Shown piece after piece: positions 3,200 through 11,021 of a DNA stretch of 33,468 bases. Source of the stretch: a virus; the UHGV virus genome UHGV-0120943; one strand, written 5' to 3'. The position numbers and the translations under genes are program-made. Numbering within the stretch: the first letter of the stretch is position 1; every line of letters begins with the position of its first letter. The notes beneath the pieces are model-generated. The model had not been told where the DNA came from, did not search any database, and saw only the letters and a list, made by a program, of their open reading frames with translations.

Positions 3200-3688
3200 T
3201 TACCCCAACCTCAAGTTCTTTAAACGATAAGTCATCGCATCGTCAGATACGCCAAAATAATGCGCCATTATATAACTTGGTTGGCCGTCAGCGTGCAGTT
3301 TTCTGACCTCATCAACCGGCATCAGAAGTTCTGCTGCGAACTTGTTCGCAAAAATTTCATCAGGATGCGTTCCGGCGCTTGCGGTTTCGCCACGTAAATC
3401 AACGTACTCATATTCATCACTATGCGATGCTTGCCGGGCGATGTAATGCCCCAACTCATGCCCACATGAAAAACGTTGACGAACTTTGTTGTCATCACTG
3501 TTTAGAAAGATCGCTGGATCTTGATCTTTTTGTTTAATCAGTGCGCCAGAAACTTTCCCAGGAAGATCGGTAATAAAAACATCTAATCCCATGTCGTGAG
3601 CAATTTTCGCTGGATCAACAGGGAAACCACGCCCGCACCAGAACGTGTCCAGCACTCGCCGGGCGTGCTCTCTTGGGTTGGTAGCCAT
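3200..3688 (-). CDS. ImmA/IrrE-family zinc metallopeptidase (HEXXH)
   Basis: 162-aa ORF with HELGHY zinc-binding motif in the FSCGHELGHYIARQ context typical of ImmA/IrrE (COG2856/DUF955). GGAGGAG Shine-Dalgarno upstream of the ATG. Confidence 0.8.
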   Translation of the reverse strand: MATNPREHARRVLDTFWCGRGFPVDPAKIAHDMGLDVFITDLPGKVSGALIKQKDQDPAIFLNSDDNKVRQRFSCGHELGHYIARQASHSDEYEYVDLRGETASAGTHPDEIFANKFAAELLMPVDEVRKLHADGQPSYIMAHYFGVSDDAMTYRLKNLRLG

Positions 3689-5867: not shown

Positions 5868-6503
5868 ATGAATGGTTTTTACGACGACTGGCCTGAAACG
5901 TTCGTCACCCGACTGGACATGTTGCGAGCGCTGGATAACAGAGGGGCAACCCGGAGACTCTACACAAAACGTACAGGGGCGATTTACAACGCGCTGGCTG
6001 ACGAGGTTCGTGATGCCGTGGCTGGATTCAATACCAGTGAACTCGACTTAGGACCACTCTACCGGTATTACAAACGTGGAGGAGAGGGCGAAGTGCTGGC
6101 AGACACACTGATCGCACTGGCACCGCCTGTGTGCAGGCGCGTAATGATTTCCCCTGACGTATATACAATACCGTACCTGTTTTTTGCGCTGTTGATAGCG
6201 CGAGGAGAGGACGACGATGCACGTGATTTTTTCAATATGATGATGCGGCCGCTAATCGTGGCGTACCGGTTCAAACAACTGGCGCGTTACCTGGGAACAA
6301 AGGGCGGAGGGAGGCCACAGCACAGGCTTAAAGACGAGGCATTACAGATTGCAGAGGTTTTTTTCACAAATAACCCCCACGCACGGGTTAGTGCGGCGGT
6401 GGCACGTATTAACGAAATTCTCGTAAAAAAATATGCGGACGTTCCGGCGGAATCAACAATCAGAAAATGGTTAACCCCTGTTTATGGAAATGAAAAAAAA
6501 TAA
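5868..6503 (+). CDS. Hypothetical prophage protein
   Basis: Track ORF starts at TTG 5838; ATG at 5868 has a GGGGA Shine-Dalgarno 6 nt upstream. No family recognised. Confidence 0.6.
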   Translation: MNGFYDDWPETFVTRLDMLRALDNRGATRRLYTKRTGAIYNALADEVRDAVAGFNTSELDLGPLYRYYKRGGEGEVLADTLIALAPPVCRRVMISPDVYTIPYLFFALLIARGEDDDARDFFNMMMRPLIVAYRFKQLARYLGTKGGGRPQHRLKDEALQIAEVFFTNNPHARVSAAVARINEILVKKYADVPAESTIRKWLTPVYGNEKK

Positions 6504-6610
6504 CCATAAACCGTTTTTTCCGGGAATAAACCGTTTAATCAAATTCACGAGATGAATATAATTGCTCATTATTCCCCCATCGCATTTGACGTTATGACAT
6601 ACGATAAAAA

Positions 6611-6630
6611 ATACTGTATATATATACAGG
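6611..6630. promoter_or_regulatory. Near-consensus LexA (SOS) box
   Basis: ATACTGTATATATATACAGG against consensus TACTGTATATATATACAGTA: perfect CTGT-N8-ACAG core. Sits between a TTGACG -35-like hexamer (6586-6591) and the RBS of the ORF at 6650. Confidence 0.7.
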
Positions 6631-6649
6631 ATTTCTGTCAGGGGGAAAT

Positions 6650-6829
6650 ATGAACACACACGAGGCGATCAGCAAATTACCGGATACGTGCCGGGCTGTA
6701 ATCAAACGAGAAGATGGGCGCGTAGTGAGTGTGCGTGTTCTCAGCGACGACGAGCGGATTGCCAGCCTGATGGCGTTTCTCGAGTTGGCAGAAATAGCTG
6801 GATATACTATTACACCCCCTGACGCGTAA
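6650..6829 (+). CDS. Small hypothetical protein (59 aa), candidate SOS-regulated gene
   Basis: ATG at 6650 preceded by AGGGGG Shine-Dalgarno; TAA at 6827-6829. Below the 60-aa cutoff of the ORF track. Translation MNTHEAISKLPDTCRAVIKREDGRVVSVRVLSDDERIASLMAFLELAEIAGYTITPPDA. Confidence 0.45.
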   Translation: MNTHEAISKLPDTCRAVIKREDGRVVSVRVLSDDERIASLMAFLELAEIAGYTITPPDA

Positions 6830-6906
6830 AACACGGTATAATATCGGTGCTGGATTGAACACCCGGCACCATTTTCTGAACACTGCCGCGCCACCTGGAG
6901 TTAACC

Positions 6907-7503
6907 ATGGCGCAGCATTCATTTATCAGGGTATCCGGCGGTTCGCTAATACCCGCGACACCAGACACGCAACGCTGGTTGACTGAACGAGTCAAACCAG
7001 GTGCTGTTGTGTATGCAGATTTCAAACAGGCGCGTAATCCCGCGTTTCATCGTAAATTTTTCTCACTTCTCAACCTGGGCTTTGATTACTGGCATCCGTC
7101 CGGAGGGGCTATTTCTCCTGCGGAGCGCGAACTGGTTCACGGCTACGTTAAATTACTGGCGTATTACGGTGGACACGGCGATGTCATGGCAGAGCTGGCT
7201 GATCAGTATCTTCTCGATGAATCGGAAAAGCGCGCGGGGAATATCAGTGCGGTGAAGTCGTTCGAGGCGTTTCGCGCATGGGCGATTATGGAAGCTGGGT
7301 TTTATGACGTTCATCAGATGCCAGACGGTAGTTTGATGCGCGTACCTCGTTCAATCTCGTTTGCTGCGATGGACGATCTTGAGTTCGGTCAACTGTATTC
7401 AGCCGTTTTAGATGTGCTGTGGAATTATATTTTGTTCCGCACGTTTGCCTCTCAGGAGGCCGCTGAAAATGCTGCCGCGCAGCTGTTGGATTACACATCA
7501 TGA
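6907..7503 (+). CDS. Lambdoid nin-region protein, YbcN/DUF1367-like
   Basis: 198-aa ORF; my recollection of the YbcN/DUF1367 family and its position before a YbcO-like gene and Q. Start has a GGAG Shine-Dalgarno. Confidence 0.6.
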   Translation: MAQHSFIRVSGGSLIPATPDTQRWLTERVKPGAVVYADFKQARNPAFHRKFFSLLNLGFDYWHPSGGAISPAERELVHGYVKLLAYYGGHGDVMAELADQYLLDESEKRAGNISAVKSFEAFRAWAIMEAGFYDVHQMPDGSLMRVPRSISFAAMDDLEFGQLYSAVLDVLWNYILFRTFASQEAAENAAAQLLDYTS

Positions 7504-7793
7504 AAAAAATCGACCTGAGAAAAGCTGCACGTGGTCGCGCTTGTACTGTGCGTATCCCCGGTGTGTGCAATCACAAGCCTGAAACCAGCGTACTGGCTCA
7601 TTATCGTCTCGCCGGAACGTGCGGCACAGCCATCAAACCTCACGATATGCAGGGCGCTATCGCCTGCAGTGCGTGTCACGATGCCATCGACGGACGTACA
7701 AAAACGGATTACGAGCGTGATTCCTTATTACTGATGCACGCTGAGGGAGTTTTCAGAACACTGGCTATCTGGCGCGATGAGGGGGTTATCTGA
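7500..7793 (+). CDS. Cys-rich nin-region protein, YbcO/DUF1364-like
   Basis: 97-aa ORF, ATGA overlap with the upstream gene; conserved cysteines (CTVRIPGVCN ... IACSACHDAIDGR). Confidence 0.6.
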   Translation: MKKIDLRKAARGRACTVRIPGVCNHKPETSVLAHYRLAGTCGTAIKPHDMQGAIACSACHDAIDGRTKTDYERDSLLLMHAEGVFRTLAIWRDEGVI

Positions 7794-8464
7794 TGAATAA
7801 CGAGTATTTATTGGAATATACCCGCATAAAACTGCGCGCTGCATTGCGGAATTTGTCTGGTGGTTCTAAGGGGCAACTGGAAGCATTGTGTGAGCACCCA
7901 CCGGCAGACAAAAACGCATACCCACGCAAACATATTCACCGTGTGCAGCTGGAGGACCGGACCGTTGATGCTCTGGTTACGCCAGTTTACGCTCTGGAAA
8001 GTTTTAGCAGACGTCGCCCCGCGCCGCCGATGAATGATTTTGAATTTGCTGATTCATCCTGGCGGCGTTCTGTGAACTCGCTGGATGCAAGTCAGCAAGC
8101 GTGGTTGCGTTATTGCTACGGTGGTAACCTGGCGTTCAAACACCAAACAGCTATTTGTGAGGCTGTCTGGAGTCGCTATAAAGGACACATCCCCGCGTCA
8201 ACTCAGAGAAAAGTAGTTAAGCGCCTGCTTTCGTTGGTGTGGTTGTCCGTGCAGGCGGTTGCAGCAGCAAATAAACGCGAGGATTTTAAGGAGATGGCCG
8301 GGTCTGCGCTAGCTGGAATGTTGTCTGTTTCTCGTTCCACCTGGTGCGAAACATACTCCCCGCACTGGGCAGGAATGAAAGAGGCGGTGAGAGCACTTGA
8401 TGAAATGGCACTTCTTGCAACTTTGCATCATTATCAGAACCATTTAGACGACGTTTGCGTATAA
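7793..8464 (+). CDS. Putative late-gene antiterminator (Q-like)
   Basis: 223-aa ORF at the end of the nin region, immediately before the lysis cassette. Call is positional; no motif verified. Confidence 0.45.
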   Translation: MNNEYLLEYTRIKLRAALRNLSGGSKGQLEALCEHPPADKNAYPRKHIHRVQLEDRTVDALVTPVYALESFSRRRPAPPMNDFEFADSSWRRSVNSLDASQQAWLRYCYGGNLAFKHQTAICEAVWSRYKGHIPASTQRKVVKRLLSLVWLSVQAVAAANKREDFKEMAGSALAGMLSVSRSTWCETYSPHWAGMKEAVRALDEMALLATLHHYQNHLDDVCV

Positions 8465-8532
8465 TGCTTGCAAAACCGAACAAAATAGACCATATTTAAC
8501 GCTAATTTGGTATGTTGCCAAATTTCTAAGAA

Positions 8533-8560
8533 CCTCGCCACGGCGGGGTTTTGTCGTTTC
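8533..8560 (+). terminator. Intrinsic terminator in the Q-holin intergenic region (tR'-like)
   Basis: CCUCGC-CACG-GCGGGG (one G-U pair) followed by UUUUGUCGUUUC, 17-45 bp before the holin start. Confidence 0.45.
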
Positions 8561-8576
8561 TGAATCAGGAAAAATC

Positions 8577-8960
8577 ATGTCTGAACCTCTAACCGCTGGC
8601 GTTGCTGCTGGCTCGGCGGGGGTGACGTTTGCTGCGTTATTTCCTGAGGCAACACCTGCAGTGATGATCTGTGCGCTGGCAGGCGCAGCTCTCTATGTGT
8701 TGTCATCCGGGCAGCATCGATTCTGGAAGCAGGTTATTTTCGCACTCATTTCGTTTGTTGGCGGTGTGTATTGCGCTGAGACAGCGTCAGCAATCATTAC
8801 CGGTATTCTGAATGCGATGCTGAGTCACCTGAACCCTCCCGTAACAGTAAAAGTCTCTCCCGCCATTGGTGCACTGGTTGCATCAGTAATCAGCGTTACA
8901 TCACTGTTGCGGATCATGTCACAAGCTCGTTTATGGAAATCAGATAAGGGGATGAAATAA
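8577..8960 (+). CDS. Putative holin
   Basis: 127-aa protein with several hydrophobic helices, first gene after the Q region. Confidence 0.6.
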   Translation: MSEPLTAGVAAGSAGVTFAALFPEATPAVMICALAGAALYVLSSGQHRFWKQVIFALISFVGGVYCAETASAIITGILNAMLSHLNPPVTVKVSPAIGALVASVISVTSLLRIMSQARLWKSDKGMK

Positions 8961-9235
8961 TGACCCTGCACTCTGTCCTCATCAATGCCAATGCAATTAT
9001 CTGTCTGATGCTGGCACTGCGGTTAATGTTTTTTCAAAAAACAGGCCGCTATCGTTTTTTCATCTCACTAACTGCTTACCTGGCGATTCTGTCTGCTGCG
9101 TGGATAGCCCTACGAATTTTTTACGGGAAATATACGCAGGTTGATCCCGCAGAGTTCTTTCTCAACCTCACCATCTGTATTGCTGTCTGGCGGGCACGAG
9201 GGAATATTTCAAAAATAACAGGAGACAGGTCATGA
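8960..9235 (+). CDS. Holin-like/antiholin-like small membrane protein
   Basis: 91-aa protein with about three hydrophobic segments; 1-nt overlap with the upstream gene. Confidence 0.5.
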   Translation: MTLHSVLINANAIICLMLALRLMFFQKTGRYRFFISLTAYLAILSAAWIALRIFYGKYTQVDPAEFFLNLTICIAVWRARGNISKITGDRS

Positions 9236-9714
9236 CCGATCCTAAATGGCTAATTGAGGCTCGAAAAAACCTCGGCATTCGGGAAATGAAAGGGAAGCAA
9301 CATGCTGCAGAAATTGTGCAGTACTGGAAAGATATTAAACGCGGCGGTATTAAGGATGACGAAACACCATGGTGCGCCGCCTTCACCGGAGCAATGCTGG
9401 AACGTGTTGGTATTCGCTCAACGCGTTTTGAGTCTGCGAATTCTTATCTCGATTGGGGTAATGAACTGAAGGAACCCGCCTATGGATGCATTGCTATTCT
9501 GTCTCGGTCTGGCGGTGGTCACGTTGGCTTTGTTGTCGGGAAAAATGCCGCCGGGGATTTAATGATTTTGGGTGGTAACCAGGCAGATGAAGTAAATATC
9601 AAAGCTTTTTCTCGTTCCCGCATAACAGGCTATCGCTGGCCTGTTGATGTGCTGGATGTGCCGTCAACCTTGCCGCTGCTGATGGGAGGTGAATTATCAA
9701 CTTCGGAGCAGTAA
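9232..9714 (+). CDS. Putative endolysin, TIGR02594-like CHAP/NlpC-P60-type peptidase
   Basis: 160-aa ORF with candidate catalytic Cys (ETPWCAAF) and His (GGHVGFVVG), plus LGGNQAD. Sits at the endolysin position. Confidence 0.65.
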   Translation: MTDPKWLIEARKNLGIREMKGKQHAAEIVQYWKDIKRGGIKDDETPWCAAFTGAMLERVGIRSTRFESANSYLDWGNELKEPAYGCIAILSRSGGGHVGFVVGKNAAGDLMILGGNQADEVNIKAFSRSRITGYRWPVDVLDVPSTLPLLMGGELSTSEQ

Positions 9715-9716
9715 CC

Positions 9717-9908
9717 ATGAAAAAGTTCTTTCTACTGGCAGCGTTGGTGCTTGCGGGTTGCTCAAACACGACGTACACGGAAGCAACGCATCCCAACGGC
9801 ACGACCGTAAAGCACATTTCTATCGCACCGGGTACGAAGATCACAACCGCAAGTGGTGGCTGTATCGACTCTACCGGGGCTGCGGCTTCATGCCCATTGG
9901 ATCAATGA
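9717..9908 (+). CDS. Small lipoprotein (possible o-spanin/Rz1-like)
   Basis: 63-aa ORF with signal peptide and lipobox LAGC. No partner i-spanin recognised. Confidence 0.5.
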   Translation: MKKFFLLAALVLAGCSNTTYTEATHPNGTTVKHISIAPGTKITTASGGCIDSTGAAASCPLDQ

Positions 9909-10107
9909 GGGTAATTGGCATAGGCAATTTAACCGTATAAGTGCGCCTTCACCGGCTTCCTGCAAATAAGTGCATTTCGTAATTTATAAAGTTCTAAGAA
10001 GCAAGTCCATAAGCTTAACATTACAGCACAAACGATCTGTTTTTAGTTCTATGGGTGTTCTCTTTTTTCGGGAATATATTTTAGTAACCAGAATTAAATT
10101 CTAAAAG

Positions 10108-10131
10108 GCCTCGCAACTGCGGGGCTTTTTT
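10108..10131 (+). terminator. Rho-independent terminator
   Basis: GCCUCGC-AACU-GCGGGGC followed by TTTTTT. Confidence 0.55.
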
Positions 10132-10284
10132 ATATCCGTATTTCGCTGCGCACCGCATGCGCATATCAACCACCGAACCAGACCCTTTGGAATGAGCCGT
10201 TGAGGATGTCAGTTAGTGCTGGCGAGCCTCGGTGGGCTGACTTCCTATGCGGCAACGGTTCATCTCAAAGAGTAGGTACACGCT

Positions 10285-10782
10285 ATGAAATCATTAACCC
10301 TCTTCAATCAACCAATCCGCGTCGGGGATGATGGCATGATCTGCCTCACCGACATGTGGAAAGCCAGCGGCAAAAGTGACGCTGAATCGCCGTACCACTA
10401 TCTGCGAAACAAGCAGACAAAAGAGTTCCTGGCCGAGCTGGAGAAAAACCACGAATCTGTGGTTTTCACTGCCCGCGGCGTACACGGCGGAACCTATGGC
10501 GGGAAGTTTGTTGCTTACGATTATGCGGCTTGGTTAAACCCAGGGTTCAAGTATGCAGCCTATAAAGTACTCGATGACTACTTCACCGGAGAGCTTCGGC
10601 ATCGTAATAGCTTAAGTGCGCAGCTCAACATGAAGTGTTATGAGTTTGACCAGAAGAAAGACATGGCGAGCTTCTGTGGGCAAGGACTCGCGGCATGGCG
10701 TTATACAAAGCCTGTGCTGATCGCTGAGATGAACACCTTGGCAAACCAACTGCAGATTACGCTCCCTGGACTTCCTGGATGA
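10285..10782 (+). CDS. KilA-N domain protein
   Basis: 165-aa ORF; N-terminus LTLFNQPIRVGDDGMICLTDMWKASGK resembles the KilA-N/APSES-type domain common in prophage accessory genes. Confidence 0.6.
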   Translation: MKSLTLFNQPIRVGDDGMICLTDMWKASGKSDAESPYHYLRNKQTKEFLAELEKNHESVVFTARGVHGGTYGGKFVAYDYAAWLNPGFKYAAYKVLDDYFTGELRHRNSLSAQLNMKCYEFDQKKDMASFCGQGLAAWRYTKPVLIAEMNTLANQLQITLPGLPG

Positions 10783-11021
10783 GTAATCGCGTCATCGAAT
10801 GCGCCTCCAGAGCGGGGCGTGACTTCTCAGAGTTCATGAAAGGCGAGAAGGGTATGGAGGACGCGCTGTCCTCGGTGGATCAGTTTGGCGAGCAGATTCG
10901 ACTCAACGGCTGCGTCAATCATCACTTTGTCAGTTACATGATGAGGAACTCGATCATGCAGGCATTCATGGACATGGCAAGCGCTGAGAAAAAAGAAGAG
11001 CGCCGACGTAAACGAGCGTAA
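10779..11021 (+). CDS. Hypothetical protein
   Basis: 80-aa ORF, ATGA-coupled to the KilA-N gene; basic C-terminus. Confidence 0.45.
   Translation: MSNRVIECASRAGRDFSEFMKGEKGMEDALSSVDQFGEQIRLNGCVNHHFVSYMMRNSIMQAFMDMASAEKKEERRRKRA

Follow-up and report, generated by a model that had tools for sequence, protein, structure and literature searches.

The window analysed here, the whole 33,468-nucleotide stretch of the virus genome UHGV-0120943, carries on its plus strand a 223-aa Q-like gene (7793-8464) and, downstream of it, a lysis cassette that holds the first late genes (8577-9908; named from Pfam, PHROG and the RefSeq names in E24377A). The Q-like reading frame closes with a TAA codon at 8462-8464, and the holin reading frame opens with the ATG at 8577 and has no possible upstream extension; for these two reasons the 112 nt between them (8465-8576) are a true intergenic gap. 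Upstream of Q lie DUF1367 and YbcO genes (Pfam), which are typical of the lambdoid nin region. On the other side of the gap, the first late gene is preceded by a Shine-Dalgarno sequence read directly from the letters (AGGA, 8567-8570, 6 nt before the ATG) and encodes a holin of the Phage_holin_8 family (8577-8960); it is followed by a 3TM holin of the Phage_holin_3_7 family (8960-9235; both holins by Pfam and PHROG), a CHAP/TIGR02594-type endolysin (9232-9714; PHROG, the CHAP match itself being sub-threshold at 25.7 bits against a cut-off of 26) and a small 63-aa lipoprotein (9717-9908), all on the plus strand. For the lipoprotein, whose signal peptide is read from the translation and for which no family match was found in Pfam or PHROG, we infer a spanin role. 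The cassette thus has two different holin-family genes in tandem and a CHAP/TIGR02594-type endolysin in place of a lysozyme. Long plus-strand reading frames continue downstream to about 31.6 kb; in E24377A and in Escherichia phage vB_EcoM-705R4 terminase genes follow the lysis genes. Downstream of the gap, lysis genes and then structural genes lie on the same strand.

An earlier note on this DNA had called the 223-aa gene a Q antiterminator, and profile and homology searches support this assignment and place the protein in the Q82 family. Pfam PF06323 recognises the protein at E 3.4e-37 (128.7 bits, the cut-off being 25; profile positions 3-206 of 220), and so does phrog_304, "anti-termination protein Q-like", at E 9e-76. 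A tblastn alignment that covers 93% of the protein gives 33.8% identity to phage 82 Q (E 3e-29), and phage 434 Q gives a comparable match. There are three unrelated families of Q, and PF06323 corresponds to the Q82 one (PMC9388147). A sequence search of the PDB with the 223-aa Q returned no related chain, and therefore we draw no structural inference for Q.

Directly after Q, and pointing towards the late genes, lies a putative late promoter of the PR' type. Its -35 element is TTGCAA at 8468-8473, the identical hexamer being found at the same place in phage 434 and in related loci, and its -10 element is CATATT, 17 nt past the -35 at 8491-8496, in alignment with the TATACT of phage 434. The 17-nt spacer between them (8474-8490) is a candidate Q-binding element (QBE), assigned by its position only; the QBE of the phage 82 late promoter, 82 pR', sits between -35 and -10 (PMC4914094). 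Each hexamer agrees with the consensus at four of six positions. A generic promoter scan did not report the late promoter at 8468-8496, its -10 being missed because the consensus match is only 4/6, and the promoter call therefore relies on homology: at the sequence level, TTGCAA-17-CATATT is a putative sigma70 promoter, homologous to and co-linear with that of phage 434. Transcription would start at 8503-8504, where T8503 aligns with +1 of 82 pR' and A8504 is the nearest purine; this placement draws on the spacing to the -10, on the ungapped alignment with phage 434 and on the numbering of PMC5001585, according to which the 82 pR' transcript starts AAA.

Two other promoter-like features overlap this region. 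A perfect TATAAT hexamer at 8460-8465, overlapping the Q stop codon, was not accepted as a promoter: a -35 or TG partner is missing, and the more distant relatives shown have not kept the hexamer. On the minus strand, bases 8470-8483 read TTGTTCGGTTTTGC and fit the CII-binding consensus TTGYN6TTGY, and the phage 434 record carries an annotated CII site and paQ -35 at the homologous place, overlapping the late-promoter -35. No usable -10 was found for this CII-type site on the minus strand. The same bases also form a 10-bp-spaced repeat (GCAA/ACAA) inside the candidate QBE.

Just past the predicted start, the gap matches 82 pR' in a predicted sigma70-dependent pause element, the extended -10-like TG-n-TATGTT at 8508-8516 (TG at 8508-8509, TATGTT at 8511-8516). 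In 82 pR' a -10-like element with an extended -10 is recognised by sigma70 at an RNA length of 21; the pause needs GCC at +15 to +17, which also sets its position, and it falls at +25/+26 after an AT-rich segment, U being the best terminal base (PMC5001585). By aligned position, GCC at 8517-8519 is equivalent to +15 to +17, and it is followed at 8520-8528 by an AT-rich stretch (AAATTTC, 8520-8526) and a predicted pause site, T8527/A8528, equivalent to +25/+26. As to membership in the Q82-type module, the extended -10-like element, the GC-rich and then AT-rich segments and the U at the pause are all present. The composite motif occurs once in the 33-kb window, against 0.02 occurrences expected by chance.

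The RNA transcribed from this segment could form a 5' hairpin in which 8504-8510 pairs with 8518-8524 (AAUUUGG/CCAAAUU; -6.4 kcal/mol, z -3.8). Covariation was absent from this hairpin across 32 relatives (score 0.063 vs 0.078 in shuffles), and we set it aside as a functional RNA structure on that ground; the conserved TG and AT-rich signals in the DNA probably account for it.

The earlier note had also placed a hairpin with a U-tract between Q and the holin gene, at 8533-8560, and these coordinates are correct, the core lying at 8533-8548 and the tail at 8549-8559. The GC-rich intrinsic terminator hairpin of the tR' type, identified by scan, folding and covariation, extends on the plus strand from 8529 to 8552, with a core stem of 8533-8538 paired to 8543-8548; the U-tract TTTTGTCGTTT covers 8549-8559, and the RNA 3' end is predicted at about 8555-8559, 17 nt separating the end of the tract from the holin ATG. 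In a terminator scan of 6500-11000 this hairpin ranks first, with 10 pairs, of which 5 are G-C, the loop CACG and the tail GTCGTTTCTG. Terminator-like hits are common in that interval (11 found, vs 5.1 ± 2.5 expected from shuffles), and for this reason a match to the terminator consensus is weak evidence if taken alone. The fold itself is unusually stable at -13.6 kcal/mol (z -4.30), none of 200 shuffles being equally stable; the predicted 56-nt RNA (8504-8559) folds at -21 kcal/mol (z -3.38), and the 112-nt gap taken as a whole is not unusual in structure (z -1.36). The U-tract is weaker than in most relatives because it is interrupted: it has 5 T in its first 8 positions, where most relatives have 6-8, and termination may therefore be leaky. 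The same interrupted tail occurs in Rahnella and Pantoea loci (L021, L022, L080). We rejected a bidirectional terminator, the minus-strand tail being U-poor and no gene converging on it. In the read-through RNA, the distal part of the U-tract, UUUCUG, may pair weakly with CAGGAA (window 8557-8571) and cover the holin Shine-Dalgarno.

From the predicted start and end, the terminated RNA would be about 52-56 nt long. A permissive search of 8380-8680 against Rfam 15 gave no match above 19.3 bits, all of them far below gathering scores, and a gathering-score search of the whole window gave nothing in the Q-holin region, its sole match lying elsewhere. Short terminated RNAs from late promoters are known for lambda, 21, phi80, 82 and P22, that of phage 82 being reported with a citation of Schechtman et al. 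1980 (PMC7547250).

Conservation of the gap was assessed across loci of increasing distance. It was first lined up with phage 434 and with loci whose Q is about 50% identical (Aeromonas phage pAEv1818, Citrobacter phage phiNP and Escherichia phage Eeyore), and the layout between the Q stop and the hairpin is identical in these four. Close relatives from IMG/VR (L001-L013) are uninformative because their gap is nearly identical. A scan of one genome per species added 80 more loci, drawn from many Enterobacterales, with Q identities of 29-99%; the resulting comparison set consists of 81 sequences, the window and the Q-homologue loci, and base conservation is given for its 69 distinct sequences. 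The loci were anchored on the pattern TTGCAA, 17 nt, nATATT, 11 nt, TG-n-TAT-nn-T, and conservation at some positions is partly imposed by this pattern: the 100% conservation of the -35 hexamer is partly circular in this way, and T8511 and A8512 of the pause element are imposed. At positions not imposed by the search, T8506 and T8516 are conserved in 100% of the distinct sequences, and in the spacer A8474, A8475, A8480 and A8484 are invariant (100%) and A8485 is kept in 90%, these A residues framing lineage-specific bases. Also among the positions left free by the search, the two key ones of the -10 stand at 100% (A8492) and 99% (T8496), C8519 of the GCC is kept in 97% and T8527, at the position of the phage 82 +25 pause, in 87%. 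T8508 and T8513, which are optional or four-base positions of the search pattern, are each conserved in 93%.

The geometry is equally constant. In 74 of the 81 sequences the pause element follows the start of the -35 at a distance of 41 nt, and the late-region elements align without gaps to those of phage 434 and of about 75 further loci. Over the 60 nt from promoter to pause, conservation exceeds that of the coding DNA of the neighbouring Q gene, with mean nucleotide identities of 68% vs 55% over the set and 75-83% vs 53-63% among closer relatives. A motif search of IMG/VR on DNA alone returned 80 loci, of which 74 have a Q82-family ORF directly upstream; of the other six, one is cut by a contig end, three have an ORF6N/antirepressor-type gene upstream and two are chance matches inside coding sequence. 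The three with the ORF6N/antirepressor-like gene (L103, L105, L155) carry a clearly homologous Q82-type late promoter with a gene other than Q directly upstream; their Q may lie further upstream.

The terminator keeps its position as well. Under strict criteria, 73 of the 81 sequences have a hairpin plus T-tract no more than 130 nt from the pause element, vs 75 of 2123 control windows (3.5%) from the same loci; the first figure is a lower bound, several of the eight misses being artefacts of the detector's trimming rule (e.g. L035, L036, L060). It is this conservation of position that makes the terminator more than a chance feature. The homologous hairpin of phage 434 was annotated as a terminator by its depositors (L014, 2239-2264). 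The loci fall into two classes: in class A, to which the window and phage 434 belong, about 24-25 nt lie between the pause element and the start of the terminator stem, and in class B an additional hairpin lies between the pause element and the terminator. Among 30 distinct class A sequences 91.7% of the cells in the stem are paired, vs 82.5% in shuffles (0 of 500 reach the observed value), and slid partners give 26-61%; two pairs show 8 double changes each, from G-C to C-G, and these compensatory changes may trace to only one or two evolutionary events. Class B loci have quite different stems at the same place, and this replacement of stems between lineages points to selection for a terminator as such.

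The extra hairpin is present in most Q82-family late leaders (e.g. L043, L045, L047-L061, L066-L095 and many of L101-L180) and absent from the window. Its 5' arm starts right after the -10-like TATnnT and its 3' arm 12-16 nt further; the arms vary by lineage with complementarity kept (GUCG/CGAC, UGCCA/UGGCA, GCUGCC/GGCGGC, GUGCC/GGCAC, UGUCA/UGACA, UUUGCC/GGCAAA). We found no description of it in the literature cited here.

The elements of the gap, their order, their spacing and their conservation, together with the family membership of Q, are direct observations on this DNA and its relatives, and the gap very probably controls the late genes of an E. coli prophage of lambdoid type, being a control region of the kind found in phage 82 (Q82). 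This bears out the PR'/tR'-like lambdoid arrangement that the earlier note had suggested, with a promoter and a pause element upstream of the terminator in ungapped alignment with phage 434; the promoter, the pause element and the Q family, which that note had left unplaced, are placed by the sequence alignment and the profile matches. As read from its letters, a complete phage-82-type switch of promoter, pause site and terminator is a textbook arrangement, not a new one.

Promoter firing, pausing, termination efficiency and Q-dependence at the gap would follow by analogy with experiments on phage 82. On that model, host sigma70 RNA polymerase would start just past the Q stop, using the -35 at 8468-8473, the -10 at 8491-8496 and a start at about 8503/8504. 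After about 21 nt, sigma would rebind at TG-n-TATGTT (8508-8516) and the complex would scrunch, then pause near T8527 with an RNA of about 24-25 nt. When Q is lacking, the polymerase would leave the pause, transcribe the hairpin at 8529-8552 and terminate at about 8555-8559, releasing an RNA of about 52-56 nt, and this termination would leave the lysis and morphogenesis genes silent. Once the 223-aa Q has accumulated, it would bind the DNA of the promoter spacer (8474-8490) and join the paused complex, probably helped by NusA, which stimulates Q82 (PMC4914094). Q would then travel with the polymerase, which would ignore this and later terminators, so that transcription would enter the holin gene 17 nt downstream and then the late operon.

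The closest relatives of this control region are those of phages 82 and 434, whose late regions are near-identical to each other. The window shares with them the Q family PF06323, the -35 TTGCAA, the 17-nt spacer, the 41-nt distance from -35 to pause element, TGGTATGTT, the GCC aligned with +15 to +17, the AT-rich run and the U aligned with +25; it differs in its Q, which is only about 34% identical to that of phage 82. With phage 434 it also shares a terminator hairpin that begins about 24 nt past the pause element. The spacer that forms the candidate QBE, in contrast, is AACCGAACAAAATAGAC here and AACTGGATTAAAAGCCA in phage 434, the -10 is CATATT instead of TATACT and the start context TAA instead of AAA, and the terminator stem is CCTCGC/GCGGGG instead of CCCGCT/AGTGGG, with an interrupted U-tract here. 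The genes beyond differ too: the holin gene begins 17 nt past the terminator in the window, whereas in phage 434 several accessory genes come first.

The resemblance to the PR'-qut-tR' region and 6S RNA of lambda is one of arrangement. Lambda has a late promoter that fires constitutively downstream of Q and contains a QBE, a promoter-proximal pause that depends on sigma, a terminator ahead of the lysis genes, read-through that needs Q and a short RNA released at the terminator (PMC4914094, PMC7547250, PMC9388147); the same logic is predicted for the window, where the QBE is a candidate one. Lambda Q, however, belongs to the unrelated family PF03589, and lambda pauses at +16/+17 and terminates at +193 (PMC4914094), whereas here the pause is predicted at about +24/+25 and the RNA at about 52-56 nt. 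With the PR'-tR' region of Stx phages and its RNA StxS, the window would have in common a terminated leader from a late promoter that is always active in lysogens (PMC7547250). The Stx phages differ in their Q family (Q21/Q933W) and in their leader, a longer one from which processing yields a 74-nt Hfq-binding RNA whose targets are known. A sequence relation of the window's leader to the Stx-phage leader or StxS was not found in Rfam.

Of 5426 complete E. coli genomes, 444 contain the 401-nt segment 8300-8700 at an identity of at least 95%, each of them once and on the chromosome, and the flanking genes carry the annotations "bacteriophage antitermination protein Q" and "putative holin" there. 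Escherichia phage vB_EcoM-705R4 has the segment at 98% identity. In the two records that were inspected (E24377A and vB_EcoM-705R4) only protein-coding genes are annotated, with nothing in the Q-holin gap.

Four other readings of the hairpin were weighed against a Q82-type late switch. It is quite improbable that the hairpin does no more than end the transcript of the early genes or of Q, with the late promoter elsewhere or absent. The hairpin does lie 65-95 nt past the Q stop, where an operon-end terminator is expected, and the promoter hexamers are weak by consensus; against it, the stretch from the Q stop to the hairpin holds a -35, a -10 and a pause element that are conserved and whose spacing is invariant across the family, this segment is under tighter conservation than the Q coding DNA, and the composite motif is unique in the window. 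Ending the Q transcript and controlling the late genes are, moreover, roles that do not exclude each other. Still less credit can be given to the hairpin as a 5'-UTR element, instead of a terminator, that would govern how stable the holin mRNA is or how it is translated. Its position 17-25 nt upstream of the holin start would suit such a role, as would the weak pairing of 8557-8562 with 8566-8571 that could cover the Shine-Dalgarno; against this, the hairpin has the classical form of a terminator, and its distance from the pause element is kept, T-tract included, even in loci with quite different genes downstream, such as tRNA genes, accessory (moron) genes or methylases.

A hairpin that arose by chance and has no function has next to no probability left. 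Terminator-like consensus hits are frequent in this region (11 vs 5.1 expected), but none of the 200 shuffles is as stable as this hairpin (z -4.3), its stem covaries, and its positional conservation is at least 90% against a background of 3.5%; folding, positional conservation and covariation together refute the chance reading as far as the DNA itself can do so. Less remote than these three, though still unlikely, is an additional function: the terminated RNA of about 54 nt, made up of the 5' hairpin, a short linker, the terminator hairpin and a U tail, might be not just a by-product of the switch but a trans-acting sRNA in lysogens, like StxS. StxS is a precedent, antiterminated phage promoters have been proposed as a source of sRNAs (PMC7547250), the predicted RNA is compact and well folded (z -3.4), and the region is present in 444 of 5426 complete E. 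coli genomes. The RNA matches no Rfam family, however, its 5' hairpin is without covariation, its unpaired linker is only about 4-8 nt, and almost every conserved base is already explained by DNA-level signals.

The Q82-type late switch, if correctly read, leaves the current understanding of antitermination unchanged; what it provides is a base-level annotation of the late switch in a prophage that roughly 1/12 (about 8%) of the complete E. coli genomes carry and in which databases give names to the two flanking genes only. Across the Q82 family as a whole the promoter-to-pause geometry is rigid (41 nt in 74 of 81 sequences), and a simple DNA motif therefore finds Q82-type switches with high specificity, which makes it useful for annotating prophages and for predicting short leader RNAs. 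In the 112-bp unit described here the terminator stem starts only 2-6 nt past the predicted pause site. If true, this unit would be the most compact natural substrate for working out the mechanism of the Q82 family, the structural side of which PMC9388147 and PMC12360218 leave open; PMC9388147 raises the question whether Q82 builds a closed nozzle in the first place. It is a long shot that the leader of about 54 nt, which would be made constitutively in lysogens, has acquired an StxS-like role in trans and that, separately, the 112-bp unit is the most compact natural Q82 substrate.

Two features far from the Q-holin region complete the description of the window. At 212-2154 on the plus strand, two genes that overlap each other have matches to a candidate pair for anti-phage defence, PDC-M25 (PDC-M25A, an AAA_15/AAA_21 ATPase, E 3.3e-157; PDC-M25B, E 5.3e-96), and the pair adjoins a gene for an ImmA/IrrE-type peptidase on the minus strand (3200-3688). 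Towards the other end, just beyond a minus-strand gene with a Bro-N domain (32239-32994), bases 33031-33116 of the same strand match the Rfam family sRNA-Xcc1 at 69.3 bits (gathering score 53), the only match in the whole window at gathering level.
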